Both the position numbers and the translations under genes were made by a program. Below, one piece after another: positions 16,726-36,690 of a stretch of DNA of 64,000 nucleotides. Positions within the stretch are counted from its first letter, which is position 1, and every line of letters begins with the position of its first letter. This DNA comes from Gammaproteobacteria bacterium (GTDB lineage Bacteria; Pseudomonadota; Gammaproteobacteria; UBA4575), in contig JAJDYY010000008.1 of assembly GCA_022824965.1 (NCBI GenBank), positions 320,284-384,283 on the forward strand. Direction: 5' to 3'. The notes beneath the pieces were generated by a model, which was not told where the DNA came from, did not search any database, and saw nothing but the letters and a program-made list of their open reading frames with translations.

Positions 16726-18663
16726 TCAGGTCCATACAGTCAGTGAATTTCTGAGTTGTCCAATCGGAAGGAAGTTCTCTTCACACCAACGGAAAAGATA
16801 GTGCCTAGGCTTTGTGGTCAGTACCTGATAAAGCGAGGCTGCCCACTGTCCCCACTCACCGTCGCACCTAGCAAGAATCAACGTGCGAAACATAAGGTTT
16901 GTAGCCTTTAAAGTCTTGGCATCTATCGGAAAATTGCCTGCCCATACTATTGGCTGTGCATTGGCCCAAATTGTATTGACAAAATCTGCAACGATTTTTG
17001 TATTGGATTGAATATCTGCATTTTCTCCACCCACATAGGTACATAGAGCTTCCAGTTGATTCAAGTCTCGGCTTTCATCCTGCTCGAACACTGAAAGAAG
17101 CACTGTGGTGCTTACAGACACATATCCGTGCCGATGCTGCGCGAGATAGACAGCTGCTTCAGCGTAAGATTCGGCAGATATAGTTCCTGCCTGTTCTGCA
17201 CTAAATATTGCAGCTTGAATCCAGACACCCCTTGTGGAAAAGGCTTCTTGGGAATATTGCCGAATTGCAAGGTCCTCACTAACAAGAACGCGGGTCTCGC
17301 CAGCCATAACACCCACACTGAAGGCACCATCTGGAGGAACACGAATCAATCTCTCGCCAAGTTCCGAAAGATTGTTTGGCAATTGCACAGGCTCTACTGA
17401 GCAGTATTCCTCAATGCTTTTTATCAATGACTGCACCGCACTGATCCGTTTGTTCCGGTCTTCAGTGGTTTCAGCATGTCGAAAGAATTGCCCGTCTCGA
17501 AAGTCAAGGCACATCGTATCGCCTTCACCCAGACCAGCATGATCATCGATCATCTCTTTTAGTCGGTTTAGCTCATAAACAGGAATTGCCAAGGGACCAA
17601 GTCGCTCTTTTAACACTGGCAGTACTTTAAGAACTGCTGCATGCCAAGCCGTAAAAGCATCGAGAACTGCACCAGCACGCTCATGTTTCTGGATCACTCT
17701 CAGTGCTTTATCACACTCATCGTGTACACCGAAGCAAACCTTCACTTCTTCGTTTATGGAAACTAGGTATTGCGCAAACGCTATTGCACCGCCTGGCCAA
17801 TCTCCTGCGGCAACAACAAGCGGGACGCCATGTTGCAAGTAGAGATCCGCCTGCTGCCGTGCCATCGCGCTATACCGACGGACTTGCTCCAACACCGGCT
17901 CTATATCATCATCGGCAATGTTTAATGAGGCAAATCCATGTGCTTCAGGAAATCTTTGTCCGAAGTTAGCCGTGAGATGGTGAAATGCCTGTAACCACCA
18001 TGGCTTTAGTTCAGCTACCGACCATGTCTCTTTGACACCTAATGAATTGGTTTTTTCAAACTTATCTCCTATCCTTAACCCCAAACATTTCAAAATGAAT
18101 GAATTGCTATCCGTTTCCGCTTGACCCCATGGTCTGTCCTGAGACTCTCCAATCAATGCTTCGTAATCGCTTCCTTCTGCACTTGTCAGCCGGACCCACA
18201 TACCAGTGCTGACAGTATCACCGATGCCAAGCTCTTGGTCCGATGAAGTTGCCCTCAGTACGAGACCCATAAACTTGAGCACCAGTTCTACATTTGAAAG
18301 GTCTGTGACAAGCGCTTCGTAAGCGATATCGAGAGCACATGCAGGCTCTTCTGAAAAGTCAAAAAGAACATGACTAAGATCGATGCGGTCCATCGAAGCG
18401 CCTGTCAAATTCTCGACTTCCAAACCACTTACCAATTGCCTGATTGCATCCTGGTCATCTATGGCGAAGTATGCCCTTACCACACACAGTAACGTGTAAA
18501 TCTCAGGCCCCTCCTCAAATGCACTCAACAGCGGCGTGATCGCTTTCCCAAAATCACCTTTGTTGAAATGTAAAATTCCTTCCAGCTTCTGAAAGAAGGC
18601 ATTGCATCGAAGATCTGGTGCCAAATCAGAAAAAACCTGGTTGCCCGCTCCCGTACAGGGAAG
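16726..18663 (-). pseudogene. C-terminal portion of a giant Mrr-like nuclease / TPR-repeat protein (downstream frame)
   Basis: 632-aa ORF with helical TPR-like repeat content. Its frame is open upstream to 18663 and overlaps the preceding ORF's frame by about 135 nt that includes an A6/T6 run at 18630..18635. It is probably one gene with the next entry. Confidence 0.5.
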
Positions 18664-20624
18664 TCAAATGCAAGAGCCGTAGCTAGTGTACGAAGTTCCC
18701 CACTGTCACGATCAAGCGCTATCTGTCCATGCAGTGTTTCTATAGTTACATCCAGTAGCCCACGTGCAAGTGCCTCTTCGGCCAGTGTAAGACGGGCAAT
18801 GTATGTGTCATCACCATTCTGAAATGCCAGAGTTGCCGATTCGAATAGTAACTGGGAAATATCTTCTATTCCACGAGTACGTGCTGACTGTGCAAGCACA
18901 GTTAATGCACGTGTATTGCCTACAAAATCTCTACACCCCTTCTCCAGAACGTCACGCACATCCGCTGGCTCCGCCAATTCCATTCGTGCAATAACACCCT
19001 TTGCCTGGACGACACTCTTCTCTGGTTCCGGAAATTGATCCAGGTTTTCATCTGCAAATTCCAAAATTTTAGGCCAGTCCTTATTTGCTATTGCAATCTT
19101 GAACCGAGCAGTAATAACTCCTTCAACATTGTCAGCAAGCCCTGAAATAGTCTCTGAGGCTTGGGCCATATGACCTTGGTCAATTAATAGCGATGCGAGG
19201 TGAACTTTTATGGTTTCTTCGTCGGGAAACCGTCCATGGGCCTGCAGGCCTAGATTGACAGCAGCTTCACTGTTTCCAACAATATGGTACGCCGTCATTA
19301 GATTCATCGGTACCGAAGATAAATCCTTACTGCAGTATATACTTCTCTCTTGAACGCTCTCCCATAACGACTCATATATTGAGATGGCTTCATTCACATC
19401 ATCAACATTACCCAAGGGCTGCCCGCACATGTATCGCTCCCCACCCATAGCCCTTGAAAGCAAGGCATTAGCGCCAAGTTCTTGCAATGCCGCAATTTCA
19501 GGAAATTGACGATAAGCGGATATTGCCTCATCCCACCAGGAATACGGCTCTCCCCGTTCCATGAGCCACTGCACATGAGCCTCGGCAACTTCAGGTGTAT
19601 TCCGAGTTTCTTCAGGTATTCGTGAAATCGGATCGTCAATTGATTCATCATGAATCAGACTTTGGAGATAACACGCTGCAAGGCGTGCATTGCTGGGTTG
19701 ATTCTTTAATTCTTCCTCAGCAAAACTTCTCACGTAATCTCGGTTTCCCAAAAGCAGGAACCCCAGCGCCTTGTTTGCGATTGCTTTAGGATTCTCGGGA
19801 GCAAAATCCCAGGCAGAAATCAATCCAGTAGCCGCTTCCCTTTTCTGCCCAAGTTCCAAGTGACATGCAGCGATGTTTGTTTTGACCCGAAATCGGATAT
19901 GATTTGATGCATCGGAGGCAAGCCTTTTCTCAAGCTTTTGCAGTAATTCAAGGGCGGTTTCAGGCTTACTTTGAATTAGTTCTACATAATCGTTAATGTG
20001 TTTTTCGTGTTCTGAATGAATAGCAGCAGAGTCCGCTATCGCTATTTCACTACTTCTTAAGGAAGCTACTTCTTGGTGACCTACCTCAATTTGGGGAGAC
20101 AGCATATCTGATACCCTCTCGGGGATGTCTCTAATAGCACTTTCTATTTGATCTATCTGCGGCGTATGCGATGGGTCAAAGGCCTTGTGGGCTTCAGGGT
20201 GGCGTTGAATTTCGCGTTGTAATTTATCCCATCCAAAAATATGGATATTGAGATCTAGAGGTCTGGATTTACTTATCTCAAACGAAAGTTTATTTGCCAG
20301 ACTTTGGAGGTTCGCATCGTCAGGAGCGGTTGTGACAATTACATACTCCGTAAGTGGTGGTTCAAATTCTAATGCCTTATTAACCTCAGCACGAACTTCT
20401 TGCTCTAGAAGCTCGCGCCCAACTGCCTTTAATTTACATTGAATGCCAACCGGGCGAGATACATCGCCATCACGATGACCAAAAATATCCACGCCATGCT
20501 GACTTTGTCCTTTGCGGCCGTATTTGCTGGCCATTGGATCGTTCAATAAACAACGCCACAACACCTCATTGCAGTCTTCGAAATCTTGTTCATAAAGTGG
20601 CTTTGGAATCTGTATTGCCATCAC
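18525..20624 (-). CDS. N-terminal portion: Mrr-cat restriction-endonuclease-like domain fused to TPR/helical repeats
   Basis: The N-terminus (FEDCNEVLWRCLL...GQSQHGVDIFGHRDGDVSRPVGIQCKLK...YVIVTTAPDDANLQSLA) matches the Mrr-cat PD-(D/E)xK layout, with a D in GVDI and QCK. The rest is TPR-like helical repeats. No Walker A motif is present. Confidence 0.6.
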   Translation of the reverse strand: MMAIQIPKPLYEQDFEDCNEVLWRCLLNDPMASKYGRKGQSQHGVDIFGHRDGDVSRPVGIQCKLKAVGRELLEQEVRAEVNKALEFEPPLTEYVIVTTAPDDANLQSLANKLSFEISKSRPLDLNIHIFGWDKLQREIQRHPEAHKAFDPSHTPQIDQIESAIRDIPERVSDMLSPQIEVGHQEVASLRSSEIAIADSAAIHSEHEKHINDYVELIQSKPETALELLQKLEKRLASDASNHIRFRVKTNIAACHLELGQKREAATGLISAWDFAPENPKAIANKALGFLLLGNRDYVRSFAEEELKNQPSNARLAACYLQSLIHDESIDDPISRIPEETRNTPEVAEAHVQWLMERGEPYSWWDEAISAYRQFPEIAALQELGANALLSRAMGGERYMCGQPLGNVDDVNEAISIYESLWESVQERSIYCSKDLSSVPMNLMTAYHIVGNSEAAVNLGLQAHGRFPDEETIKVHLASLLIDQGHMAQASETISGLADNVEGVITARFKIAIANKDWPKILEFADENLDQFPEPEKSVVQAKGVIARMELAEPADVRDVLEKGCRDFVGNTRALTVLAQSARTRGIEDISQLLFESATLAFQNGDDTYIARLTLAEEALARGLLDVTIETLHGQIALDRDSGELRTLATALAFDFPVRERATRFFLIWHQIFDAMPSFRSWKEFYISTKVILGKRSRRC

Positions 20625-21038: not shown

Positions 21039-21992
21039 GTGGGCCATATTTCATTTCAAGAAAAAGAATTCCGATCTGCTGACGAATTATGGGATGCACT
21101 GAGCCCTACCAACAAACTTGTTAGGTCACCAGGCCAACTAATTTACCGTGGACAGGAAAATGCAGAATGGGGCCTCATACCCTCTGTGTTACGGAAAAGC
21201 CCAAGCAATCCTGCAACAATTGCATGGGGTGATAACATAACGGCTGACAACCAAATAAGCACAGAAATTGTGCTACTTGAAACCTTCGCGGGCTTCTGTG
21301 ACCAAGTCGGAGTTAAAATACCTAATGACTCGTTGAAATTTCGAAAAAACGTGCTCGCAGCTGAGAGGCAGGATGAGTATTTCACCAACCCACAATCATG
21401 GCCGAATCCAGCCCTGATTGAAGTGATGGCTCTGGCGCAACAGCACGGAGTGCCAACAAGATTGCTTGACTGGACAAAGAACCCTTATGCGGCCGTATAC
21501 TTTGCGGCTAGTGGAGCCCTCTCAAATGTTGGGAAATGGGGTGAAACTACGGAAACTGATAAATTGGCAGTATGGGTATTGAATATCGATCGAATTTCTG
21601 TATTCCACAGAGTGAATGTTGTCCAGCCTCCTGGTGCAATATCTCCCCACCTTGCTGCCCAGGCTGGCTTGTTCACAGTCTACCCTCACAGCGGGAGCCT
21701 CGGAGAGCCGTTCAATGTCGTTGGGCTTGAAAATCAATTTTCCATACTCCCAGATACTCCTTTGATGAAACTTACGATTCCTGTACAGCAAAGTGCCAGA
21801 TTAAACTGGTTGTGTGCCAAGATTGGGATCACTGGTGCAAGTATTTTCCCTGGTGCTGATGGAGCCGGAAGAGCTGTTATGGACACAGTCAACTCATGGG
21901 CAGCAGCCCGTCACAGTTTACTCTATAAAGCCATGAATCAAATATCAAACAGTCCTGATTGCCAAGATGCAAACAAATCGTCTATCACATAA
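21039..21992 (+). CDS. FRG-domain protein
   Basis: LIYRGQENAEWGLIPSVLR and QHGVPTRLLDWTKNPYAAVYFA match the two signature blocks of the FRG domain (PF08867). Confidence 0.65.
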   Translation: MGHISFQEKEFRSADELWDALSPTNKLVRSPGQLIYRGQENAEWGLIPSVLRKSPSNPATIAWGDNITADNQISTEIVLLETFAGFCDQVGVKIPNDSLKFRKNVLAAERQDEYFTNPQSWPNPALIEVMALAQQHGVPTRLLDWTKNPYAAVYFAASGALSNVGKWGETTETDKLAVWVLNIDRISVFHRVNVVQPPGAISPHLAAQAGLFTVYPHSGSLGEPFNVVGLENQFSILPDTPLMKLTIPVQQSARLNWLCAKIGITGASIFPGADGAGRAVMDTVNSWAAARHSLLYKAMNQISNSPDCQDANKSSIT

Positions 21993-22096: not shown

Positions 22097-22450
22097 ATGC
22101 AACGTGATGATGAATATATCAGAGACCTTCTTTTTGAAATTGAGAAGCAAGACAACTTCCTAGTGATGATTCTTGATACACTTGACGCTTCTCCTGCTGA
22201 AAGAAAAAAATTGTATCACGCTCAGCTTTTATGTGATGCAGGTTACATGATTCAGGTAAGTAATGCAGGCTATCGGTTGACATCTCAAGGACACGACTTC
22301 ATTTCGTCCATCAGGGACGAAGGTATATGGAATAAAACTAAGGCAGCAGTTGCTGAAACAGGTGGTAATGTAACCCTTGAGGTTATAAAAAGTCTTGCTT
22401 ATGGATTCCTCAAGAAGAAAATTTCTACTCATACTGATATAGAGTTATAA
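22097..22450 (+). CDS. DUF2513-family small protein
   Basis: 117 aa: MQRDDEYIRDLLFEIE...LYHAQLLCDAGY...LTSQGHDFISSIRDEGIWNKTK fits the DUF2513 family pattern. An RBS (AAAAAGGAAA) lies 7 nt upstream. Confidence 0.6.
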   Translation: MQRDDEYIRDLLFEIEKQDNFLVMILDTLDASPAERKKLYHAQLLCDAGYMIQVSNAGYRLTSQGHDFISSIRDEGIWNKTKAAVAETGGNVTLEVIKSLAYGFLKKKISTHTDIEL

Positions 22451-22500
22451 GCAGGAGAATGCTTTGCCACTGGCTGGATTAAATTTTTAGTGAGAGGAAC

Positions 22501-22902
22501 TTGAAAGACTGTTGCCGAAACTGCCATTTTCTTGCCCGAAAAAATTATCTGGATAACGTTGCAGGCAGGTATGAACAGGTTCCCTTCGAAAGACGAAAAT
22601 CATTGACCGGTCTTGGGTCATGCTGCTTTCACGGTGAATGGAATAGTACCGGCCTCGCAAGTGAGAGAATAAAGGAAGAGGATGTTCCAAAATTTCTGGA
22701 TCAATCGGGACGCGACTGTTTTTGGCCATACAAAGAAGGCATGTCCTTTGAAGCAGGGAAACTGCGTCAAAGAAAAGAGATTGAGGACAGCAGGACAAGG
22801 AAAAGTTTCTGCCTCATGAAGATAAGCATATTTCTTTCTGCTATAGCAGCACTCAGTGGACTTGTGTATGTCATTGATTTGATCAACACATGGAGTAGCT
22901 AA
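22501..22902 (+). CDS. Cys-rich small protein with C-terminal transmembrane anchor
   Basis: 133 aa with Cys clusters (DCCRNCHF, GSCCFHGEW, DCFWPY) and one C-terminal hydrophobic helix (ISIFLSAIAALSGLVYVIDLI). No family recognised. It lies 51 nt after the DUF2513 gene on the same strand. Confidence 0.45.
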   Translation: MKDCCRNCHFLARKNYLDNVAGRYEQVPFERRKSLTGLGSCCFHGEWNSTGLASERIKEEDVPKFLDQSGRDCFWPYKEGMSFEAGKLRQRKEIEDSRTRKSFCLMKISIFLSAIAALSGLVYVIDLINTWSS

Positions 22903-23004
22903 TCCAGAGACAAACAGCTCTTTCCACTTCACGCTCCAGAAACTTGCCGCAGTGTCAGTAGCAACCTTTACGGTATACCAAGTTATTTCAAAATTTTTCT
23001 GCTT

Positions 23005-23317
23005 ATGGGTACACAAAATTTAGAGGAAGATGACTCGACTTTATTGGAATTGACTAGTCAACAGCACGGCGTACTTGATATTTTGAAAGATAAAGAAACA
23101 GACAAGTACCCCTTGAGCAAGTGGTATCTGGATACACTTTATGCTCTAGATAATGATCTTAACCCGGATCGATTTTGCAAGCAGCCCATTCGCTAAAAGA
23201 GCTACAATAATTCAGGTAGGATTGGCCAGTGATGATGCAATGGTGAAGAGAAATACAAGACAGGCCTTGGAGAATTTGCTTGTATGTGGATATTCCAGTT
23301 TATCGGACTACAAGTAA
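23005..23317 (+). CDS. HEAT-repeat-like small protein, two overlapping ORFs (23005..23196 and 23153..23317); possible frameshifted gene
   Basis: ASDDAMVKRNTRQALENL and DKYPLSKWYLDTLYAL resemble PBS-lyase-type HEAT repeats. The two ORFs overlap in different frames. Confidence 0.3.
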
Positions 23318-23357
23318 AGGAAGATCAGATTCAACTACAGATTATATACAAAATACC

Positions 23358-26300
23358 TCACACCATTTCTTCGGATAACATCTTTGCCTGGGTTAGTACT
23401 AACTCAACCGCACCTTTCTGCTGATCGGGAGGGTATTTGTATTTCCGTAGTAACTGACGAATGAGAATTCTCAGTCTTGCCCGAACACTTTCACGAACTG
23501 CCCAATCCACAGTCAGGTTTTCCCGCAGTTTTTTTGCAATCTCCCTGGCTATCTCAACGAGCACGTCCTCGCCCATCAATTCCTGTGCAGACTCATTCTG
23601 AGCAAGGGCATCATAAAAAGCCTCTTCCTCATCCGACAGATCATGGGCTTCCCTTCGCTTCAGGTCTTCCTGGAATTGCTTCGCCATGGCGATGAGCTCT
23701 TCAATCACCTGTGCCGCTTCAATCGCACGGTTCGCGTACTTACCGATGGATTTCTCGAGAAGCTCACTGAATTTACGTTGCTTGACAACATTGGTGCGGA
23801 ACCTGGTTTTGACCTCGCCCTTAATGAGTCTTTGCAGAAGTTCTACTGCCAGATTCTTGTGCGGCATCTTCATCACTTCTTTCAGGAAATCATCCGAAAG
23901 AATGGAGATATCCGGAGACTCCAGGCCTGCGAGTCTGAAAACATCGGATACGCCCTCACCCACGATTGCCTGGGACAGCAATTGCCGTAATTCAAAGTCC
24001 GTATCTCGAGGTGGCTTCTCTCCGCTTCCGCCTTTTACGAGTGGTGCACGCACTGCCTGATGAAATGCCACTTCAGGGGCCAGTTCCATGGCTTCATCCA
24101 GGGTTCCGCACAATGCAAAGGCCTTAGTCAATTGCAGGACGGTATCGCAGTACCTGCGCTTGCCGTCTTCCTGTTCAAGCACATGATCCATGCAGGCCGG
24201 GATGATCTGAAGCGCGTTTATCCTGTACTCACTCCAGTCCACAGGGTGTAGCAGGTCTCGTGCGACCTGGATCTTCTCTTTAAGGATCCGTAACGCTTCA
24301 GATGAATCAATCGTCGGTCTGCCCTTCCCTTTTGCCGCACTGTAGGTTGCCAAAGCCTCCCTGAGTTGCGGGGCAATGCCGATGTAATCCACCACCAGCC
24401 CACCGGGTTTGTCCTTGAAGACACGATTCACCCTTGCAATGGCCTGTGCCAGATTCGCGCCCTGCATTGGTTTGTCGACATACATGGTCGCAAGACAGGG
24501 TGCATCAAACCCGGTCAGCCACATGTCTCGAACAATAACAATCTTGAGAGGGTCTGAAGGATCTTTGAAACGCTTCTCAAGGTCTTTCTTCTGTGCACGG
24601 CTGGTATGGTGAGGTTGAAGTTCCAGCTTGTCGGATGCAGATGCCGTCATGATGACTTTTATTGCTCCGGACATGTGATCATCAGAATGCCATTCAGGAC
24701 GCAGGGCCACGATCTGGTCATACAGCCTGGCACATATCATACGAGACATGGTCACGATCATGGCTTTGCCAGGCTGTGTCTGACTGCGCATCTCGTAGTG
24801 ATCGATCAGGTCAACCGCCACCTCCTTCAGGCGTGTATCCGTTCCAACGATTGCCTCCAATGCGGACCACTGGCTCTTGGCTTTCTCTTTCTCCTGCTCA
24901 TCCGCTGTCTCACTGTCCAGAATCTCTTCCACTTCCTCATCGATTTGAGGAAGCTCGGCCTGGTTCAGGTTGATCTTGGCCAAGCGTGATTCATAGTAGA
25001 TCGGAACGGTAGCGCCATCATCCACGGCCTGCTGGATGTCGTAGACTGAAACGTAGTTGCCAAAAACCGCTTGGGTGTCGCGATCATCCTGGGAAATAGG
25101 TGTTCCGGTGAACGCGAGGAACGTCGCATTGGGCAAGGCGTCACGCAGGGACTTGGCCAGACCATACTTGATGGCCCCACTCTCGCTATCAATTTTTGCT
25201 TTGAACCCATATTGAGTCCGGTGTGCCTCATCCGCGATCACCACAATATTGTGACGATCCGTGAGCACGGGGAATCGCTCCTCATCCGCATCCAGACCGA
25301 ATTTCTGCATGGTTGTAAAGAAGATGCCGCCCGAAGGCCGATCCATCAAATGTTCCCGCAGTTCTGCACGGGAATCAGCCTGTTTGGGCGTGTCGTTCAG
25401 TAGTTCGCCTGAATTCGCAAAGACATTAAACAACTGGCCATCCAGATCCCTTCTGTCTGTAACCATGACAATGGTGGGGTTCTCCAGCCGAGGCTCCGAG
25501 ATCAAGCGCCCGGCCAGACACGCCATTTCGATACTTTTTCCAGCACCTTGTGTATGCCAGACTACTCCGCCTTTCTTGTCACCCTCCACGTTGCTCGCAG
25601 TCACCACGCTCTCGACTGCTACTTGTACGGCATGGAACTGGTGATAGCCGGCAATCTTCTTGATGAGGGTTCCGTCATCTTCAAATAGACAGAAGTACCG
25701 CAGGTAGTTGAGGAAGATTTCCTTGTTGAAAACTCCCTGGATCAGGGTCTCGAGCTGCTGGTGCTGGCCTAGGGGGTCCAGTTCGACACCATCAATGGTG
25801 CGCCACCGCATGAATCGTTCCCTGTCTGCGGAGATTGACCCCAAACGTGCGTAGATACCGTCTGATATGACCATACAAACGTTATAGCTGAACAGGTCCG
25901 GGATATCCGCCTTGTAAGTCTGTAACTGATCGAATGCGGTCCAGATGTCCGCATCCTCATCCGCACCATTCTTGAGTTCAATGACGGAAAGTGGCAACCC
26001 GTTTACAAACACCAATACATCTGGCCTGCGGTTATGTTTGTGCCCTTGGATCGTGAACTGATTGACGACCAGCCAGTCATTGTTCTCCGGGTCTTCAAAG
26101 TCAATTACTTTGAGTTGTTTGCCGACTTCCTGGTTATCTTCGTGGAAAGTGACCTGGATGCCTTTGGTCAGCCACTCATGCACTTTCCGGTTGCAGGGCA
26201 TCAATGCCGGGATGTTCGGGTTAGTCAATTGAGAAAGTGCCGTGCTGATTGCAGATTTCGGGATATCAGGATTGATGCGAGTCAGTGCTTCCTGCAAGCG

Positions 26301-26447
26301 ATCTTGAAGAATGACTGAACGGTAGTCTTTGCGTTCCGGTTCCTGACCATCCGGGGCAATTTCATACCCGCACTTGTACTGATAGCCGAGTTCCTTAAAC
26401 CAGTCGATGCTTAACAGTTCAACTTGATCTTCGGTCACCAGCGCCAC
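23358..26447 (-). CDS. hsdR: Type I restriction enzyme R subunit
   Basis: 1029 aa with an N-terminal PD-(D/E)xK nuclease region (PDVLVFVNGLPLSVIELK) and SF2 helicase motifs (HTQGAGKS, VIADEAHR). Confidence 0.9.
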   Translation of the reverse strand: MALVTEDQVELLSIDWFKELGYQYKCGYEIAPDGQEPERKDYRSVILQDRLQEALTRINPDIPKSAISTALSQLTNPNIPALMPCNRKVHEWLTKGIQVTFHEDNQEVGKQLKVIDFEDPENNDWLVVNQFTIQGHKHNRRPDVLVFVNGLPLSVIELKNGADEDADIWTAFDQLQTYKADIPDLFSYNVCMVISDGIYARLGSISADRERFMRWRTIDGVELDPLGQHQQLETLIQGVFNKEIFLNYLRYFCLFEDDGTLIKKIAGYHQFHAVQVAVESVVTASNVEGDKKGGVVWHTQGAGKSIEMACLAGRLISEPRLENPTIVMVTDRRDLDGQLFNVFANSGELLNDTPKQADSRAELREHLMDRPSGGIFFTTMQKFGLDADEERFPVLTDRHNIVVIADEAHRTQYGFKAKIDSESGAIKYGLAKSLRDALPNATFLAFTGTPISQDDRDTQAVFGNYVSVYDIQQAVDDGATVPIYYESRLAKINLNQAELPQIDEEVEEILDSETADEQEKEKAKSQWSALEAIVGTDTRLKEVAVDLIDHYEMRSQTQPGKAMIVTMSRMICARLYDQIVALRPEWHSDDHMSGAIKVIMTASASDKLELQPHHTSRAQKKDLEKRFKDPSDPLKIVIVRDMWLTGFDAPCLATMYVDKPMQGANLAQAIARVNRVFKDKPGGLVVDYIGIAPQLREALATYSAAKGKGRPTIDSSEALRILKEKIQVARDLLHPVDWSEYRINALQIIPACMDHVLEQEDGKRRYCDTVLQLTKAFALCGTLDEAMELAPEVAFHQAVRAPLVKGGSGEKPPRDTDFELRQLLSQAIVGEGVSDVFRLAGLESPDISILSDDFLKEVMKMPHKNLAVELLQRLIKGEVKTRFRTNVVKQRKFSELLEKSIGKYANRAIEAAQVIEELIAMAKQFQEDLKRREAHDLSDEEEAFYDALAQNESAQELMGEDVLVEIAREIAKKLRENLTVDWAVRESVRARLRILIRQLLRKYKYPPDQQKGAVELVLTQAKMLSEEMV

Positions 26448-28057
26448 TAGATATCTACCTCTTCAAGAAACTTTTCGGCATCTGAAATGTGGAGTTCACC
26501 CGAGATAAGCCTAGGGAGGAGAATATCGCGGAGCTGGGAAAGACAGTCATTTTCTTGACTCGCAATCTTAATTTTTGCAAATATTGGAAAGCTGATTTCT
26601 TCATAAATTGACATCACGTAATCAGACGGGCGGATCAACTTAAACCTATCAATATCTGATTTACCCAAATGAATGACTGTGGTCGCCGTCTCTGTAGACT
26701 CAACTTCATAAAGCGGTCTTTCCAGCCCGAACTTAAGGAAAGCAGTGGGGATATTTGTATTTGGGATAAATTTACAGATTCGCTGGTTCATCCAAGAGTC
26801 CTTTCCTGTCCAGTAATAACACCTAAATTCACCATCCATCCCGACAACTAGGTCACCTGCTTTGATTAAAGTTCCTTTTGGATGTGCTTCTTCTGTAAAA
26901 ACTTCTGATCCACCTTTTGCAAGGTCTCTAATTCTCACAAGAGGCAATCCTCGCCTGTCAGAATTAAACAACTTGGACTTAAATGGCGCTCCATAAATTA
27001 CTTCACACAAATCGTAGATTGAAGCAATACTCCACCCCTTTGGGATCTCCCCAATCTCCGACTCCACCAAAGTATCAGGGAATAAATCACTGATTTCAGA
27101 CGGAAGACCCGTAGGATGGCCTTCTGCCTTTGCTCGGACAGGGTCAAAGTCAACAAACCATGATTTGAAGATTGCCTTGGCTATCTCTTCAAGGGTTTTG
27201 TTGGTTTTTTGGTTGAGTTCGATTTTGTCGTCGAGGGTGCCGAGGATATGGGCGATGGCACGTTGCTCGGAAAGAGGTGGAAGAGAAATAGCTATATGGT
27301 CTAAAGCTTCAGCAGGCACGCGTTGGCGCCCTGAAGTACCAGTCATCTGACCAATCGCATACTCACGAAACCTGTTCCATCTCGTCAGGTAGTAGGCGAA
27401 ACCACCATCTGTGACATCCGGGCGCCCACGGATAACTATAAATTCGGTAGAGCCATGTGCTGATATCATCTGCTTTGTAGCGTTGTAGCGAGCAATCTTG
27501 CCATTCTCAAGACATGGCGTGATTCGAGCCATGAGCGTGTCGCCATCTAGGAAGCGAGAGCCCCCACCTCTGAATTCACGCTCTTCTATTGCATACGTAT
27601 TTCTTGAATCTCCGTTGATAGCAGCCATGCCAACAAAAGGGTAGGTCTCGCCGCGGACAAGTTGCACCTTCGGATTAACCTCAACCGCTTGACTGAAAGG
27701 CACCTCACACCAATCTGAACTGCTTTCCGGGACAGGAAAAAGTGTTTTGTGCTCTTCTATAACCTGCCTAAAGCCACCACTGACTCGATTCATGTCCACG
27801 ACATCAACTGTATAAGGAAGGCTGGAGTCTTCGAAAGCATCCTGCAGTATATTGATCGTCCTGAAGTCCAACGGCGTATCGCCCTCGACTGCTAAATCAA
27901 GATCAGACGAATCTTTTGTTGTCCAAGTGGCACGGCTGCCAAATACCCATACCTTCACATCACTCGGCAAGTGAGTGCACAGGATATCCTGCACAATTTT
28001 CAAGTGGTCAGAACGAATATCAACGGAACTAACCAAGGGTCCGATTCTTCTTCTCAA
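26447..28057 (-). CDS. hsdS: Type I R-M specificity subunit HsdS with an in-frame N-terminal MNT-type nucleotidyltransferase (HI0073-like) domain
   Basis: Residues 1 to about 100 carry the NTase motif VFGSRATWTTKDSSDLDLAV plus LPYTVDVVD (MNT antitoxin-like). The remainder has two TRDs and the conserved HsdS central and C-terminal coiled-coil repeats. No stop or obvious internal start separates the two parts. Confidence 0.75.
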   Translation of the reverse strand: MRRRIGPLVSSVDIRSDHLKIVQDILCTHLPSDVKVWVFGSRATWTTKDSSDLDLAVEGDTPLDFRTINILQDAFEDSSLPYTVDVVDMNRVSGGFRQVIEEHKTLFPVPESSSDWCEVPFSQAVEVNPKVQLVRGETYPFVGMAAINGDSRNTYAIEEREFRGGGSRFLDGDTLMARITPCLENGKIARYNATKQMISAHGSTEFIVIRGRPDVTDGGFAYYLTRWNRFREYAIGQMTGTSGRQRVPAEALDHIAISLPPLSEQRAIAHILGTLDDKIELNQKTNKTLEEIAKAIFKSWFVDFDPVRAKAEGHPTGLPSEISDLFPDTLVESEIGEIPKGWSIASIYDLCEVIYGAPFKSKLFNSDRRGLPLVRIRDLAKGGSEVFTEEAHPKGTLIKAGDLVVGMDGEFRCYYWTGKDSWMNQRICKFIPNTNIPTAFLKFGLERPLYEVESTETATTVIHLGKSDIDRFKLIRPSDYVMSIYEEISFPIFAKIKIASQENDCLSQLRDILLPRLISGELHISDAEKFLEEVDI

Positions 28058-28466
28058 GCTGTATCAAGAGATAACGTGATTCTGCGAGAAAGTCAGGAGC
28101 ACTGTTTAAAACTTCTTGTGCCTTCTGTTCATCATACGTATGACTTGTGGTGCCTCTGTTGCGGCGATACTCTCTCCAAACAACAAGTTCAGCCTGCACT
28201 AACGACTGTTTGGATGCCTCACGTATCACATCATTAAAAGACATGTCGTCAACCTCTACAGGATTAGCAGAAGCTAGTTCCAGGTAGCGCTTAATCATTT
28301 TAAAGGACAACTCATAGGTAAATTCAAAAGCTTGAATTACAGCCGCCCTCATATGTCGCTTGAGACGAGGCTCAGCCATTGTCAACTCTGAATCATATAT
28401 CTCAAGAGCCTCTTCTAGTTGTGAAATGGCTTGTTTCAACGACGACAGGTCCAAAGGCAAAGGCAT
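28029..28466 (-). CDS. HepT-like HEPN toxin (HI0074 / NTase substrate-binding family)
   Basis: 145 aa with an intact Rx4HxY HEPN motif (RGTTSHTY) and HI0074-family N-terminus (LSSLKQAISQLEEALE). It overlaps the MNT::hsdS start by 29 nt. Confidence 0.7.
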   Translation of the reverse strand: MPLPLDLSSLKQAISQLEEALEIYDSELTMAEPRLKRHMRAAVIQAFEFTYELSFKMIKRYLELASANPVEVDDMSFNDVIREASKQSLVQAELVVWREYRRNRGTTSHTYDEQKAQEVLNSAPDFLAESRYLLIQLEKKNRTLG

Positions 28467-28544
28467 CTTTTATCTCCAATATGTAGGATATGAGCTAGTT
28501 GTTTCTCAAAAGTGATGCACGACTTATTTTCACGTCATCTCAGG

Positions 28545-30101
28545 CTATCCTGATCTTGCAAACCCCAACTTTTTTAGGTTTTCAGCGATAGTCTGATCAA
28601 GCTGAGCACCTTCAACCTGCTGCGTATGCAGTTGCGCAGCCAAGTGTCTCATCTTGTCTTCGAAAGGCTCACCGTCATCCTCTTGTGGCGCAGCCCCAAC
28701 ATAGCGTCCAGGTGTGAGGACAAATCCACTCTTCTCAATCTCATCAATGGATGCCGACTTACAAAAACCCAATACATCCTCGTACTCTTCTCCCTGCTTC
28801 CACGCATGCACTGTATCTGCAATCTTGGCAATGTCTTCGTCAGTCAGGACCCTGTTGACCCGTGTCTCCATCGTTCCCAGCTGACGCGCATCAATAAACA
28901 AGGTCTCCTCACGCCTGCCACGACCATTCGCAGTCTTGTCATTAGTCATAAACCACAGGCATACAGGAATCTGTGTGTTCAGAAACAACTGGCCCGGCAG
29001 TGCTACCATCACTTCCACCACATCACCACGGATCATTGCCTTACGAATCTGGCCTTCGCTGCTTGCGTTCGAACTCATGGAACCATTTGCAAGGACAACG
29101 CCGACCTGTCCTCCTGGTCGCAGCTTCCACAGCATGTGCTGCAGCCATGCGAAGTTTGCATTCCCCACAGGGGGTCTGCCGTATATCCAGCGAGGATCTT
29201 CCTCATACTTCTCTCCACCCCAGTCAGAAATGTTGAAGGGTGGATTTGCCATGATGTAATCGAACTTCAAATCCGGGAACTGGTCCCGTGCAAAGGTATC
29301 CGCGGGTTCTTTACCTAAATCTGCAGCAAATCCCCGAATCGCCAGGTTCATGGCGGCCAGCCGCCAGGTTGTAGGGTTGCTCTCCTGCCCGTAGATGGAG
29401 ATATCGTCCACCCGGCCACCATGTGACTGCACAAACCTTTCACTCTGAACGAACATCCCGCCTGACCCGCAACAAGGGTCATACACCCGACCAGTATGCG
29501 GCGAGAGGATGGCCACCAGGGTTTTCACTACATGTGAAGGGGTATAGAACTGCCCACCCTTCTTGCCCTCGGCTGAGGCAAACTGACCCAGGAAGTACTC
29601 GTAGACCTCGCCCAGCAAGTCACTGGAGTCGTATTTGTCACTGAATCCGATGGTGGAGATCAGATCAATCAGCTCACCCAGTACCCCCGGACCCAGCTGT
29701 GCCCGCCCGAAGCGTTTGTCCAGCTTCCCCCGCAGGGATGGATTTTCGTTCTCTATCAGGGTCATTGCCTTGTCCACAAGGGACCCAATATCAGGTTGCT
29801 TTGCCTTGGCTCTGAGAGATTCCCAACGTGCCTCTTGTGGCACCCAGAAGACATTGTCTTGTGTGTAATAGTCACGCTCCTCAAGCGCTTCTTCGAACTC
29901 AGCAGGGGTTTCGCTTAAAAAATATTCAGACGAGGGCTCTGACACCATGCGCCGGATTTCTTCCTGCTGCTTAATGAAGGTGTCTGAGATGTATTTGAGA
30001 AAGATGAGGCCCAGCACGATGTGCTTGTACTCCGCTGCATCCATCTGCGCGCGAAGCTTGTCCGCAGACGCCCATAACTTTTTCTTTAAGTCATCACCCA
30101 T
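28545..30101 (-). CDS. hsdM: Type I R-M DNA methyltransferase subunit (N6-adenine)
   Basis: HsdM N-terminal domain ([32 protein letters not shown]), AdoMet motif I (DPCCGSGGM) and NPPF catalytic motif. Confidence 0.92.
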
Positions 30102-32266: not shown

Positions 32267-33133
32267 TCATCTTCCTAGGTAGGCTGTGCTGATCTGTTCT
32301 CTCTCGTGGCCGAGTTCCTGGCTGATCGTCATCCGGGCCTGGTGGTCCAGCTCCCGCTGTTCCGGGGTCAGTGACTTGCTATCGGGCCCACCTGCGGCTG
32401 GAGATTTCCAGCCAGTCAGTTCCTCGTAGCGTTCCTGTGCGTACGCATGGCGCAGCCCATGCATACTCGAAAGTCCGGCCCGGGTGGTGTTGCCTTCGTA
32501 GACTCTCAGCTGCTGTACATAGCTTCGGTGCGGCGGGATCAATGAGCCGAAGCCAGCCAAGGCCCGTGTGCGGTCAAGGATCGCTCTTTGATGTTCTGTT
32601 CGAACGGGGATCGTTCGGAGCTTGCCGCCCTTGGTCCAGCTGGCCTTGAGCCGGAGGTGATCCTTCTGATCCGCATAACTGGGCATGAACTTCATGGCCT
32701 CCTCGCGGCGCAGCCCAAAGGCCCGCTGCAGTTCGAGACTCATGCGCACATGAATGTCCTTGACCTTGCTGAGTTGGGTTTGGGTGATGTCCTTGGCTTT
32801 ACTCTCGTTGGTGACGAACCTTCGGTCCGGGATGCCATAGAATTCATTGGATCGGGCGATGACGTTCTGCTTGTTGACCTTGTCGGCCCACCATCTCAGT
32901 GCAGCCATCCGGTTCTTGATCGTCCCGATCGAGAGTTCCTTTTCCTGCCACTGCTTCACCAGCGCCTCGATGTGCTTGGGCTTGAGTGATTTTGACTGCA
33001 TCTTGCGGTAGCCCATCGCATGCAGCTCATTGGCCATCAGCGTCAGCATGCGCTCTCTATTTCGTTGCGTGGCATAGCTGCCTTCCCGGCAGTGCCGGCA
33101 AAGCTGTTTCAGCTGGTGATTAAGATTTCTCAT
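32267..33133 (-). CDS. Tyrosine recombinase / integrase-family protein (second recombinase of the island)
   Basis: HGLRHAYAQ (HxLRH box) and C-terminal STAYLGR (catalytic Tyr). The start is set at the MRNLNHQ ATG at 33133. Confidence 0.7.
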   Translation of the reverse strand: MRNLNHQLKQLCRHCREGSYATQRNRERMLTLMANELHAMGYRKMQSKSLKPKHIEALVKQWQEKELSIGTIKNRMAALRWWADKVNKQNVIARSNEFYGIPDRRFVTNESKAKDITQTQLSKVKDIHVRMSLELQRAFGLRREEAMKFMPSYADQKDHLRLKASWTKGGKLRTIPVRTEHQRAILDRTRALAGFGSLIPPHRSYVQQLRVYEGNTTRAGLSSMHGLRHAYAQERYEELTGWKSPAAGGPDSKSLTPEQRELDHQARMTISQELGHEREQISTAYLGR

Positions 33134-33514
33134 GGTTCCAAGCCTTTCCGTGTTCTTTCTCTTCGGTGAGTGTTTCTGGCCTTCTGTCCGCCTTGGCGGT
33201 TCAGGTTCGCTTTCGCGACATGGCTCCATGGGACACAACTCCCTCAATGACTTGAATGGGCCTCAGTCAGGCCACACAGGTCCTCTTCGGTCGAAGAGTG
33301 ACTCCGTGCCAGTCCAAGATGCCCCAAAGGGGCGACAGTTCAAGATGGTGATACCTCCTTTTCAGTCATGCGGATCGCTCCGCGGGATTTAAAAAATAGC
33401 CCGGTGCACAGCATTCCTGCCTGGTCCCGAAGACCAGACCGGGGTGCCGTTCACGGGCTTAGATAAATGTCACGTACAGGCGAACCCGCACGTGCCGACA
33501 GGCAGAATGCCTTG

Positions 33515-33638
33515 CGTTGAAGATGGACAAGCCCGAAGCCTGCCTGAAGTCCTGTCAGGACGTTGAAGATGGAAGCAGGCCAAAGACCTGAATCCTGATG
33601 CCTGGGTACCGCTGTACACAGGCTGGTATTGAAGATGG
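33515..33638. repeat. Three direct copies of (G/A)TTGAAGATGGA (iteron-like)
   Basis: Copies at 33515..33526, 33561..33572 and 33627..33638, with spacings of 46 and 66 bp, inside the 860-bp non-coding region between the two recombinase genes. Confidence 0.55.
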
Positions 33639-33872
33639 ATCGCAGCCTTGCGGCTGGGGCACCTGTTGCGCGATCCGGAGGCGCCTCGTTGCCGCTGATA
33701 TACCGTAGCGGCACCGGTACAAAACTGTTACGGGTCAGTATACCACCCGGCGCCTCTCAGTCACGGAAAATCTTCTTATCACTGAGCTAAATATTTCGAC
33801 ACCGTAATTTACGGGGCATTCAGCTCTCAAAAACGCACAGTACGGGGCTACCTGCCTCGGAGCCCTGCAGGC

Positions 33873-33922
33873 GGCCGTGTCACTCCTGCGTTTCACTTCG
33901 TTCACCAAGGAGTGACACGGCC
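33873..33922. promoter_or_regulatory. Perfect 14-bp inverted repeat (GGCCGTGTCACTCC / GGAGTGACACGGCC) with a 22-nt loop
   Basis: Seen directly in the sequence. A strong stem-loop or dimeric protein-binding site in the recombinase intergenic region. Confidence 0.5.
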
Positions 33923-34112
33923 TAGTACGTGAATGTCCAGCTCGTTGTATGACCTTTCCTAGCCTACGGTTGCACAGCAGACTTGCCGGGGCTACCAAGT
34001 CGCCTGCATACGGTATGGGGCTGTACACAAAAGAATGCGTTGGTTTTAGCGCGCGGCTATCGCTTGCCAGTCACGGTGCAGCTTACAGAGGGCAAGTTCG
34101 TGGAACAGATAT

Positions 34113-35303
34113 TCACGTGTCGGCTTTCAACTCGTCGAGATAGTCTGCCCATACCTGCATCATCTCTCTTCGCTCTGGCAGATGGGCAGTGCGGTTGTAA
34201 GCACGCCCGTTTGGATCACGCACACTGTGGGCAAGTTGGTGCTCGATATAGTCTGGACGAAACTTGAGCACCTCATCCAAGATCGTTCGTGCCATCGCCC
34301 GAAACCCATGGCCGCTCATCTCCTCCTTGCCAATCCCCAGGCAGCGCATAGCAGCCAGAATGGCGTTATTGCTCATTGGTCTGTCGCCCTTAGGACTCCT
34401 TGCGCTGGAAAATACATACTGACCATTTCCGGTCAAAGGTCTTAATTCCCGCAAAATCTCAACAGCTTGTCTTGAAAGAGGTACGATGTGTTGGGTCCGG
34501 GTTTTGGTCACCTGAAAACGCCACTCGGCATTATCCATATCCATATCCTCCCACTGTGCGTTGCGGAGTTCGCCAGGGCGTACAAAAACCAGCGGCGCAA
34601 GCCTAAGAGCGCAACGTACAGGGAGTGTTCCCTCGTAACCATCGAGTGTCCTCAGGAGTTTCCCTACTTCTTTGGGCTCAGTGACTGAAGCAAAGTGCTT
34701 CCCTTTCACAGGGGGCAATGCGCCCTTCAAGTCTCCCGAAGGGTTGTACGTGGCGCGACCAGTGGCAATCGCATAGCGAAAAACCTGGCTGCAGTAGCTT
34801 AGCACCCTATAAGCAGTTTCCAGTGCCCCACGCTGTTCGATCCGCTGAACTGTCTCAAGTAGTTGGGGTGCTGTAATTCTAGTAATCGGCCGACTGCCAA
34901 TCCATGGGAATACATCTCCTTTCAGTCTACTAATGACGCGAGTCGCATGGCCAGAAGACCAGTGGGGTGCATACTTGGCAAACCATTCATTTGCAAGGGC
35001 CTCGAAACTGTTCGTTGTCTCTTCAGCTTTTGCAGCTTTTTCTGCCTTGCGCTGCTCGCTCGGGTCGACTCCGTTCACTAGCAGCTTGCGGGCCTCATCA
35101 CGCCTAGTACGTGCATCCTTCAGCGTGACATCGGGATAAACACCTAGCGAGAGGCGCTTCTCCTTCCCTTCAAAACGGTACTTCAAACGCCACCACTTTC
35201 CTCCGTGGGGCGCAACTTCCAGGTACAGCCCACCGCCATCAAACAGCTTTCTAGCTTTTTCACCAGCCTTGGCATTTCGGATTGCAGCATTGGACAAGCT
35301 CAT
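34113..35303 (-). CDS. int: P4/CP4-57-type tyrosine integrase
   Basis: MSLSNAAIRNAKAGEKARKLFDGGGLYLEVAPHGGKWWRLKYRFEGKEKRLSLGVYP is the classic P4-integrase N-terminus. The C-terminal catalytic region carries HGFRAMARTIL and an LAHS tail. The gene is adjacent to the tRNA 3' end. Confidence 0.9.
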   Translation of the reverse strand: MSLSNAAIRNAKAGEKARKLFDGGGLYLEVAPHGGKWWRLKYRFEGKEKRLSLGVYPDVTLKDARTRRDEARKLLVNGVDPSEQRKAEKAAKAEETTNSFEALANEWFAKYAPHWSSGHATRVISRLKGDVFPWIGSRPITRITAPQLLETVQRIEQRGALETAYRVLSYCSQVFRYAIATGRATYNPSGDLKGALPPVKGKHFASVTEPKEVGKLLRTLDGYEGTLPVRCALRLAPLVFVRPGELRNAQWEDMDMDNAEWRFQVTKTRTQHIVPLSRQAVEILRELRPLTGNGQYVFSSARSPKGDRPMSNNAILAAMRCLGIGKEEMSGHGFRAMARTILDEVLKFRPDYIEHQLAHSVRDPNGRAYNRTAHLPERREMMQVWADYLDELKADT

Positions 35304-35466
35304 GGGGGCAACTTCCCTTATGAATGGTGTGCTTGCCCCCAATTCTGCCCCCAGTTGCCCCCGGATGTCAATAAATCTCAAAGGATCACTTTGGACGCAA
35401 TACCACTGTAAGTGTATGATTATATGAATATATTAGGATGTTATAGGACGTCTTTGGACTTTGACT

Positions 35467-35543
35467 TGGTGGCTATGGTTGGACTTGAACCAACGACCCC
35501 AGCATTATGAATGCTGTGCTCTAACCAACTGAGCTACATAGCC
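35467..35543 (-). tRNA. tRNA-Met (anticodon CAT, elongator-like)
   Basis: GGCTATGTAGCTCAGTTGGTTAGAGCACAGCATTCATAATGCTGGGGTCGTTGGTTCAAGTCCAACCATAGCCACCA on the minus strand. It has a cloverleaf with a CAT anticodon loop and an encoded CCA. Confidence 0.85.
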
Positions 35544-35598
35544 ACGTTCGGGAAAACCCGTGAACGGTACAGAAACGTCCGGGGAGATGTCAACAACC

Positions 35599-36690
35599 CT
35601 ATACATTGAAACGGAAATGCACAACGTCGCCTTCCTCGATCAGATAATGCTTTCCTTCGAGTCGCCACCGGCCCTGCTCTTTCGCGCCTGATTCACCGTT
35701 GGCATCCACATAGTCCTGGTAGCTGATGACTTCTGCCCGGATGAAGCCCCTTTCAAAATCCGTATGGATTTTTCCGCCCGCCTGCGGAGCCGTCGCACCT
35801 TGCTGCACCGTCCAGGCCCGGACCTCCTTGGGGCCCGCCGTGAAAAAAGTCTGCAGTTCCAGCAGCGCGTAGCCGGTGCGAATGACCCGGCTCAAGCCGG
35901 GCTCCTCCAGCTTGAGTTCGTCCAGGTAGGCCTGCCGGTCCTCTTCCTCCAGTTGCGCCAGCTCGGCTTCAATTTTCGCACACACCGCAATGACTGGCAC
36001 CGACTGCTGGCTCGCGAATTCCTGCAAACGGTCCAGATGCGGATTCCCCTCGAACCCGTCCTCCGAGACATTGGCGATATAGAATGCGGGCTTGCCGGTG
36101 AGCAGGTGCAGGGTCCTGAAATGATGCTGGTGCTCGTCCTCCACTTCGAACCCGTGTGCCGGGCACTCTTTCTCCAGGTGCTTTTGCAGGCGTTCGTACA
36201 GCCCCAGTCGTACAACCGCCTCCTTGTCTCCCGACTTGGCCGCACGTTCCGTCTTGCCGAGGGCCCTGTGCACGGTTTCCAGGTCCGCCAGGATCAGCTC
36301 GGTTGAAATCGTTTCAAGGTCTGAAAGGGGATCGACCCTGTCATCCACATGAATGACATTCTCATCGTCGAAGCAGCGGATCACGTGAGCAATCGCATCC
36401 GTTTCGCGGATGTGCCCGAGGAATTGATTTCCCAGCCCCTCTCCTTTCGAGGCACCGGCCACCAGACCGGCGATGTCCACAAACTCAATCGTCGTTGGAA
36501 TGGTTTTTTCAGGATTCGCGATGCGTGCGAGTGTGGCGAGCCTCGGGTCGGGTACGGCGACCACGCCGATATTCGGGTCGATGGTGCAGAACGGATAGTT
36601 CTCGGCCGCAATACGGGCTGAGGTTAGCGCATTGAACAGGGTGGATTTGCCGACATTGGGCAAGCCGACGATGCCACACCTAAACCCCAT
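35599..36690 (-). CDS. ychF: Ribosome-binding ATPase YchF
   Basis: GIVGLPNVGKSTLFNALT P-loop, 363 aa, TGS domain at the C-terminus. Confidence 0.92.
   Translation of the reverse strand: MGFRCGIVGLPNVGKSTLFNALTSARIAAENYPFCTIDPNIGVVAVPDPRLATLARIANPEKTIPTTIEFVDIAGLVAGASKGEGLGNQFLGHIRETDAIAHVIRCFDDENVIHVDDRVDPLSDLETISTELILADLETVHRALGKTERAAKSGDKEAVVRLGLYERLQKHLEKECPAHGFEVEDEHQHHFRTLHLLTGKPAFYIANVSEDGFEGNPHLDRLQEFASQQSVPVIAVCAKIEAELAQLEEEDRQAYLDELKLEEPGLSRVIRTGYALLELQTFFTAGPKEVRAWTVQQGATAPQAGGKIHTDFERGFIRAEVISYQDYVDANGESGAKEQGRWRLEGKHYLIEEGDVVHFRFNV

Follow-up and report, generated by a model that had tools for sequence, protein, structure and literature searches.

The DNA analysed here, hereafter the window, is a stretch of 64,000 nucleotides (nt) from a Gammaproteobacteria bacterium (assembly GCA_022824965.1, contig JAJDYY010000008.1, positions 320,284 to 384,283 of the forward strand). 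At 22501..22902 on its + strand, exactly where a first-pass annotation made from the letters alone had placed it, lies an open reading frame (ORF) with a TTG start that encodes a protein of 133 amino acids (aa). Judged by its sequence, the protein belongs to an undescribed family of small proteins predicted to be anchored in the membrane by their C-terminal tails. The island in which the ORF sits is borne by a P4-type integrase and located at tRNA-Met/ychF. It is poor in GC: the content is 43-53% over ~16-32 kb of the window vs ~58-62% in the flanks, and 43.5% in the ORF region vs 55.7% for the entire window.

Two antisense ORFs (103 and 132 aa) overlap the 22501-22902 ORF, so its reading frame needed support. 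In a search of 5.8 billion protein clusters, its relatives included P0001 (93% identical, 133 aa) and P0002 (50% identical, 130 aa), and the genes of both start, like the window ORF, with TTG after an AGGAAC ribosome-binding site. Between the window ORF and the 93% identical copy, the ratio of nonsynonymous to synonymous substitution rates (dN/dS) is 0.20. The ORF is a real gene under purifying selection and no chance frame.

No recognisable family had been seen in the protein at first pass, and the databases agree: it has no match in Pfam (E<=0.1), NCBIfam or PADLOC and only a meaningless one in PHROGs (phrog_3973, E=0.015), and a search of PDB sequences with the family profile returned 0 matches at E<=1. 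When 1.84 billion representative proteins were searched exhaustively with a HMMER profile, 111 full-length relatives were recovered at E<=1e-3, nearly all of 125-160 aa and aligned from end to end (P0002 with E 3.9e-69), and a second profile search returned 185 clusters, all unnamed or "hypothetical" and without a Pfam domain. Nearly all homologues are 120-175 aa long, with CxxCHF at about residue 5 and one terminal hydrophobic helix. Among 92 relatives no relevant Pfam model was matched, and a weak MtrC-domain match in a single member is a motif artefact. All members come from uncultured organisms (metagenome-assembled genomes and environmental samples), and the clusters, each of 1-13 sequences, are rare. 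The more divergent members belong to Alpha- and Gammaproteobacteria, Methylomirabilia, Chloroflexi, Latescibacterota, Desulfobacteraceae and Syntrophus. The proteins of loci L013, L014 and L015 (gene at ~6001-6411 in each) are 84-92% identical to one another and come from Planctomycetota, Betaproteobacteria and Nitrospira bins, which implies recent inter-phylum transfer or binning errors. A phage or plasmid origin was rejected because the collections searched, of 2.9 million viral contigs, 50,697 phage genomes and 72,556 plasmids, contained no relatives.

The protein contains seven cysteines, one fewer than the eight of the first-pass annotation, at residues 4, 5, 8 (CCxxC), 41, 42 (CC), 73 and 104. 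The CCxxC and CC clusters described there are present, but only C5, C8, C42 and C73 are conserved, at 95-100% in 212 homologues together with H9, whereas C4, C41 and C104 are lineage-specific and lie outside any conserved site. In window numbering, the conserved positions of the 212-member alignment are C5, C8, H9, F10, R32, C42, W47, R71, C73, M81, A86 and L89. The family consensus begins with M-K-x-x-C-R-N-C-H-F-L, has C-x-x-G-V-W in the middle (with V, I or E before the tryptophan in the family criterion, C-x2-G-[VIE]-W), runs through R-x-x-C-F-F-x-Y-x-x-G-M-x-F-x-A-A-x-E-L-Q-K-R-E into a charged helix, and reads I-G-L-W-I-A-A-x-A-L in the hydrophobic helix. The window protein carries this signature in full (C-x2-C-H-F, C-x2-G-[VIE]-W, C-[FY]-x-x-x...G-M-x-F-x-A-A at the helix start, R32 and R71). 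Four conserved cysteines with one CxxC knuckle plausibly fit a structural four-cysteine (Cys4) metal site best; zinc is the most likely metal at this putative site of residues 1-82, and an Fe-S or Cys3His alternative may apply, given the adjacent invariant His9. A basic, nucleic-acid-binding N-domain finds no support in the family's median net charge of ~+1.

The membrane anchor is predicted from several properties. Kyte-Doolittle values over 19 residues reach 2.0-2.26 in residues 104-128, the tail beyond comprises 4-5 residues, and hydropathy revealed no N-terminal hydrophobic segment or signal sequence. A terminal hydrophobic 19-mer (Kyte-Doolittle >=1.6) is present in 199 of the 209 members carrying CxxC[HY]F, and the tail beyond it has a median of 4 residues. 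Lysines and arginines number 4.0 in the 15 residues before the helix vs 1.1 after it. Together, the charge bias, the terminal helix and the short tail point to a tail-anchored protein with N-in, C-out topology and its N-domain in the cytoplasm, so that both the hydrophobic helix and the tail-anchored architecture proposed at first pass stand. P0019 and P0033 are among the few members with a 130-160-aa extension past the helix, and these extensions fit a helix that truly spans the membrane.

AlphaFold, a check that the first-pass annotation had suggested, gave a confident model with a 92-sequence alignment (predicted local distance difference test, pLDDT, 93.8; predicted template-modelling score, pTM, 0.77), whereas with 3 sequences only the pLDDT was 59. 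The model has a small beta-rich domain, with strands at residues 11-15, 23-26 and 40-42 and one helix (59-66), followed by a single unbroken helix over residues 83-132 (pLDDT 94-98) that includes the terminal hydrophobic segment. Foldseek returned no significant match: the best E values were 5.7 in the PDB and 0.98 in BFVD. Such a search has low power for an 80-residue domain, and the modelled fold would be either new or too small for recognition. The zinc-ribbon or treble-clef fold of which the first-pass annotation was reminded found no support: only one CxxC is conserved and the second knuckle is not present, no zinc-finger Pfam model is matched in 92 members, and Foldseek found no such match (a weak fold test for 80 residues). 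A likeness lies in the CxxC knuckle, which in this small, beta-rich domain would supply two ligands of the probable Cys4 site; the difference is that the other conserved cysteines (C42 and C73) are isolated.

The cysteine domain also occurs in proteins that have no such anchor. P0227 (locus L028, 5386-7290, 587 aa), encoded directly downstream of an MmeI-like gene, is without a transmembrane helix and consists of a TIR_2 domain (E 3.5e-16), the cysteine domain and a ~320-aa PDC-S65 domain (E 2e-50), in that order. It keeps all signature residues (CxxCHF at 159, CxxG[VI]W at 199, CFF at 227), and the cysteine domain of this type is homologous to residues 1-95 of the window protein. The same order of domains, with CxxCHF, CxxG[VI]W and CFF kept, was found in at least 15 clusters, down to 55% identity; ~100 SIR2-type PDC-S65 clusters are without the cysteine domain, their homology starting after it. 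PDC-S65 is a PADLOC candidate from a "guilt-by-embedding" analysis (bioRxiv 10.1101/2024.01.29.577857), and the PDCs are candidates only. In a metagenome-assembled genome of Syntrophus (L023, 3328-4155), an unannotated 165-aa soluble C-terminal domain takes the place of the anchor. No Pfam or PDB match was found for this domain and no PDB sequence match for the C-domain of the L028 protein. Since the anchor can be replaced by TIR plus PDC-S65 or by the 165-aa domain, the cysteine domain behaves as a portable sensor or regulatory module. As a separate observation, an R-x6-H motif (RHFRNVVH) in the L023 domain recalls HEPN.

The family gene appears to move on its own. By blastn, DNA homology between the window and the contigs encoding P0001 (L002/L003) is confined to 22479-22904, that is, the ORF, a 22 nt leader and 2 nt after the stop codon, and the flanks are unrelated. 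The leader is the sole upstream sequence common to the window and the 93% identical copy. No meaningful repeats flanking the ORF were found, and an integron cassette was rejected because homology stops 2 nt past the stop codon, which leaves no shared attC-like element. Neither a convincing promoter nor a terminator belonging to the ORF was found, and there is no sigma-70-like site directly upstream. The coordinates of the gene, of its parts and of the surrounding island are collected in the table, together with the defence-associated neighbours of family members at other loci.

Table. Features of the tail-anchored protein gene and its island in the window, and defence-associated neighbours of family members elsewhere. 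Positions are window coordinates; L numbers are loci.
Feature	Position or locus	Strand	Basis or remark
Conserved leader with ribosome-binding site AGGAAC	22479..22500	+	22 nt; 0 nt gap to TTG; same AGGAAC-TTG arrangement in L001
Coding sequence, predicted tail-anchored protein with four conserved Cys	22501..22902	+	Homologues, dN/dS 0.20
Residues 1-82, small beta-rich predicted cytoplasmic Cys domain	22501..22746	+	Conservation in 212 homologues; AlphaFold pLDDT 82-95
Codons of conserved residues	C5 22513-15; C8 22522-24; H9 22525-27; C42 22624-26; C73 22717-19	+	
Residues 83-103, charged juxtamembrane helix	22747..22809	+	Consensus F.AA.ELQKRE.EN.QLKRS; continuous with membrane helix; AlphaFold, conservation
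Residues 104-129, single C-terminal hydrophobic (predicted transmembrane) helix	22810..22887	+	Hydropathy, family statistics, AlphaFold helix
Four residues and stop codon after helix	22888-22902	+	
FRG-domain protein	21039-21992	+	Pfam FRG E 2e-18; PADLOC candidate PDC-S15 E 6e-34
DUF2513 protein	22097-22450	+	Pfam E 1.7e-14; phrog_585; 50 nt before ORF
hsdR	23358-26447	-	Pfam
Nucleotidyltransferase+hsdS	26447-28057	-	Pfam
HEPN-type NTase_sub_bind protein	28029-28466	-	Pfam
hsdM	28545-30101	-	Pfam
Integrase_1 integrase	32267-33247	-	
P4-type tyrosine integrase	34113-35381	-	
tRNA-Met	35467-35543	-	Sole known RNA element found in island
Core gene ychF	35599-36690		Follows tRNA-Met
Type I hsdR/hsdS/hsdM neighbours	Window, L012, L029, L057, L059		L057 one ORF after hsdR
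MmeI-like type IIG neighbours	L014, L022, L028, L037		
Methyltransferase-Mrr fusion	L040, L049		19 nt downstream
Neighbours at L005	L005		AbiEii, FRG, DUF4145, C5 methylase
Other defence-associated neighbours	L006, L007, L009, L048, L037		AAA_21-DUF4435 (L006); Schlafen/AlbA_2 (L007); RhuM (L009); TIR (L048); DUF4238 (L037)

Upstream of the ORF on the same strand lie the FRG and DUF2513 genes, which may be co-transcribed with it; the DUF2513 gene is a possible source of its transcription. Downstream, a 455-nt gap (22903-23357) separates the ORF from the end of hsdR, and the two genes are convergent. The gap contains only two short ORFs (23005-23196 and 23153-23317) in different frames and without family matches, and may be a decayed gene. 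The type I restriction-modification (RM) operon occupies 23358..30101 on the - strand. Embedded between its hsdM and hsdS genes is the HEPN-type/nucleotidyltransferase pair (26447-28466, - strand), of which the nucleotidyltransferase is in frame with hsdS in one 536-aa ORF, which may reflect a fusion or merely the lack of a stop codon between the two. At the low-coordinate end of the island, two large overlapping genes (16726-20624, - strand) encode a 632-aa PIN protein ("PIN domain associated with the TPR-GreAB-C-PIN system", E 4e-15) and a 699-aa TPR protein, and appear to form a PIN-TPR conflict system. A tRNA-derived att repeat was not found at the far end of the island. The insertion site recurs in the family: P0002 is encoded directly after an integrase of the same type at ychF, in an island with type ISP RM and DarTG (L001), and another family member directly follows ychF (L019, 1240-2861). 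Both the window (32267-36690) and L001 (7032-13574) adjoin ychF with the same integrases (Arm-DNA-bind_3/Phage_int_M/Phage_integrase; Phage_int_SAM_2/Integrase_1).

Loci elsewhere were sought with a 19-sequence sub-alignment, the full alignment having no sufficiently conserved block. When the neighbours of ~46 independent loci were compared (all-vs-all BLAST and phmmer, E<=0.01), no conserved partner gene was found besides RM enzymes, which are the sole recurrent neighbours and comprise type I, MmeI/type IIG-type and other RM genes at ~12-13 of the ~46 loci. Apart from these and the loci with the other defence-associated neighbours of the table, the loci are on short contigs or form small insertions amid housekeeping genes. 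That defence genes can lie within or next to type I RM loci is well documented (PMC11411939; bioRxiv 10.1101/2024.01.29.577857). Two neighbouring genes are recorded here as single observations. Downstream of the 93% identical copy, a 147-aa gene (L002, 2216-2659, - strand) without a PADLOC match has, by eye, an R-x4-H motif (KRSKLAHG), and its product may be HEPN-like. In L033 (72-1150), a 190-aa ORF on the strand of the family member, 93 nt upstream of it, looks by eye like a class III nucleotidyl cyclase; this layout, a single case, recalls the cyclase and transmembrane-effector arrangement of Pycsar.

The interpretation that we favour, with about even confidence, is that the protein is a stand-alone defence-island protein in which a putative cytoplasmic Cys4 sensor or regulatory domain is joined to a membrane effector helix. 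A soluble domain with a probable metal site, a helix exchangeable for TIR, mobility as a lone gene and residence in defence islands together favour immunity of the abortive-infection type. We infer metal binding, topology, toxicity and the defence role, the last from genomic context only, and regard the gene as a plausible immunity candidate. In the proposed mechanism, the cysteine domain (residues 1-82), held by its putative Cys4 site, would keep the protein inert until it detected an infection-associated cue. The helices would then associate in the inner membrane, membrane integrity or the proton-motive force would collapse, and the infection would be aborted, as with other small membrane effectors of defence systems.

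Several points weigh against this interpretation. Residence in defence islands does not necessarily make a gene a defence gene; at about half of the loci the neighbours are all housekeeping or unannotated genes, many contigs being too short to judge, and no PADLOC model matches the ORF protein or its 92 relatives. Because the conserved cassette has no promoter, expression in the window depends on upstream genes. Conservation along the long helix shows no clear peak of heptad (coiled-coil) periodicity. Finally, in the TIR fusions the cysteine domain stands between the effector and a putative sensor, and could be an adaptor or oligomerisation module instead of a sensor.

The main alternative, which we think unlikely, is that the protein serves RM enzymes as an accessory or guard. 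Its cysteine domain would sense a type I or type IIG (MmeI/Eco57I-like) enzyme, or the inhibition of that enzyme by phage anti-restriction proteins, and the membrane (or TIR) effector would fire only when restriction fails. Besides the recurrence of RM genes, it draws on tight same-strand layouts in L022 (an MmeI-like gene 23 nt upstream of the family gene), L009 (an MmeI_C remnant overlapping the family-gene start codon by 4 nt), L040, L049 and L057. Upstream neighbours are mostly on the same strand, and the shared cassette has no promoter. The fusions point the same way: three further TIR-Cys-S65C loci (L062, L063 and L065, from 6001 onward) lie beside Eco57I/MmeI-type genes, and all four loci examined, with proteins of ~570-604 aa, are within 6 kb of Eco57I/MmeI-type methyltransferase-restriction genes. 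However, the type of partner (type I, MmeI-like or methyltransferase-Mrr), its orientation and its distance vary, the two genes converge in the window and L014, and most loci have no RM gene within reach. RM systems are moreover the commonest constituents of defence islands, so adjacency is expected for any cargo gene. A bolder form of the guard hypothesis, which we hold to be unlikely, makes the CxxCH Cys4 domain a restriction guard of new fold that would switch either a pore-forming tail-anchor helix or a TIR NADase; uncultured bacteria of many phyla would thereby have a second line of immunity coupled to their RM systems.

Quite unlikely, in our judgement, is a selfish or addiction-type membrane toxin, or neutral island cargo, spread by recombination and with no role in phage defence. 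The homology block confined to the gene would suit such an element, as would the 84-92% identical proteins in bins of different phyla, the rarity of the clusters and the location of some copies beside transposases (Y1_Tnp in L004) or in housekeeping neighbourhoods. Yet no cognate antitoxin or conserved partner gene was found, and purifying selection acts over the whole protein, including the structured soluble domain. The domain recombines with modules such as TIR and PDC-S65, as immune proteins typically do, and the absence of relatives from the plasmid, phage and viral collections searched also counts against an element of this kind.

A role in housekeeping or stress, whether as a membrane-anchored sensor of redox state or metals, a zinc anti-sigma factor, a small Fe-S or haem protein, or a tail-anchored protein of the ElaB/YqjD type associated with ribosomes or the membrane, would accommodate the conserved CxxCH with two further cysteines, the tail-anchored architecture and the loci amid metabolic genes, but is improbable given the patchy, horizontally transferred distribution in low-GC islands, the lack of a sigma factor or other conserved neighbour, the lack of a match to zf-HC2 or any other Pfam model in any member, and the exclusion of covalent c-type haem, whose attachment takes place in the periplasm, by a domain that has no signal peptide and occurs inside cytoplasmic TIR proteins.

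The ORF is a good candidate for experimental testing and not an established system. If it is an immunity gene, it would be among the smallest single-gene defence modules known (~135 aa, one soluble domain and one helix). If the favoured interpretation is true, the family would provide a new metal-binding domain without a PDB fold match that is interchangeable between membrane and TIR effectors, and a minimal system in which to study the gating of a membrane-disrupting helix by a sensor domain. Current defence-finding pipelines miss the family, since Pfam, NCBIfam, PADLOC and the phage and plasmid collections all lack it; in the literature, no paper was found that joins "tail-anchored" with "anti-phage" and none that names PDC-S65. 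Because type I and MmeI-type restriction genes recur beside the family gene, the "guard of restriction" hypothesis is directly testable.

Comparison with known systems leaves the family apart from each of them. A c-type cytochrome (CXXCH) was rejected: the motif starts at residue 5, there is no signal sequence, the N-domain is predicted to be cytoplasmic by charge bias, and the domain is found in TIR proteins without a transmembrane helix. Zinc anti-sigma (ZAS) factors share with the window protein an N-terminal cytoplasmic Cys/His domain, whose metal binding is putative here, followed by a single transmembrane helix. Their motif is H-x3-C-x2-C, whereas the window protein has C-x2-C-H at its extreme N-terminus and two distant cysteines, with essentially no extracytoplasmic part and no adjacent extracytoplasmic function (ECF) sigma gene. 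Membership was rejected, as neither the ORF protein nor 92 members match zf-HC2 (PF13490) and no sigma neighbour occurs in the ~46 loci.

With the TIR subgroup of PDC-S65 the family has the cysteine domain in common and, likewise, a position adjoining RM genes. The window protein lacks both TIR and the ~320-aa C-terminal domain and has a transmembrane helix instead. Membership of PDC-S65 was rejected, because the ORF protein and 92 relatives do not match PDLC05060/05061, the models of that C-terminal domain; the PADLOC models leave the cysteine domain uncovered, and the SIR2-type majority is without it.

Small membrane effectors include the transmembrane effectors of Pycsar, CBASS and retrons and the RexB-type proteins. 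There is no similarity in sequence or fold between these and the window protein, the PycTM match of one member (E 0.023) being noise; the window protein has a single C-terminal helix vs the N-terminal multi-helix arrangement, and no partner cyclase or sensor gene. In common with them, it is short, combines a soluble, presumably regulatory domain with a membrane helix and resides in defence islands, and its family's transmembrane module is interchangeable with TIR. PrrC, the anticodon nuclease lodged within EcoprrI, a type I RM locus, shows no homology to the window protein, being a soluble RNase of ABC-ATPase-like type, and any functional link between the window gene and hsdRMS is purely hypothetical. 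The PrrC gene nevertheless resembles the window gene, a candidate defence gene, in standing alone in or beside a type I RM operon, and is a possible model of "guard of restriction" logic.

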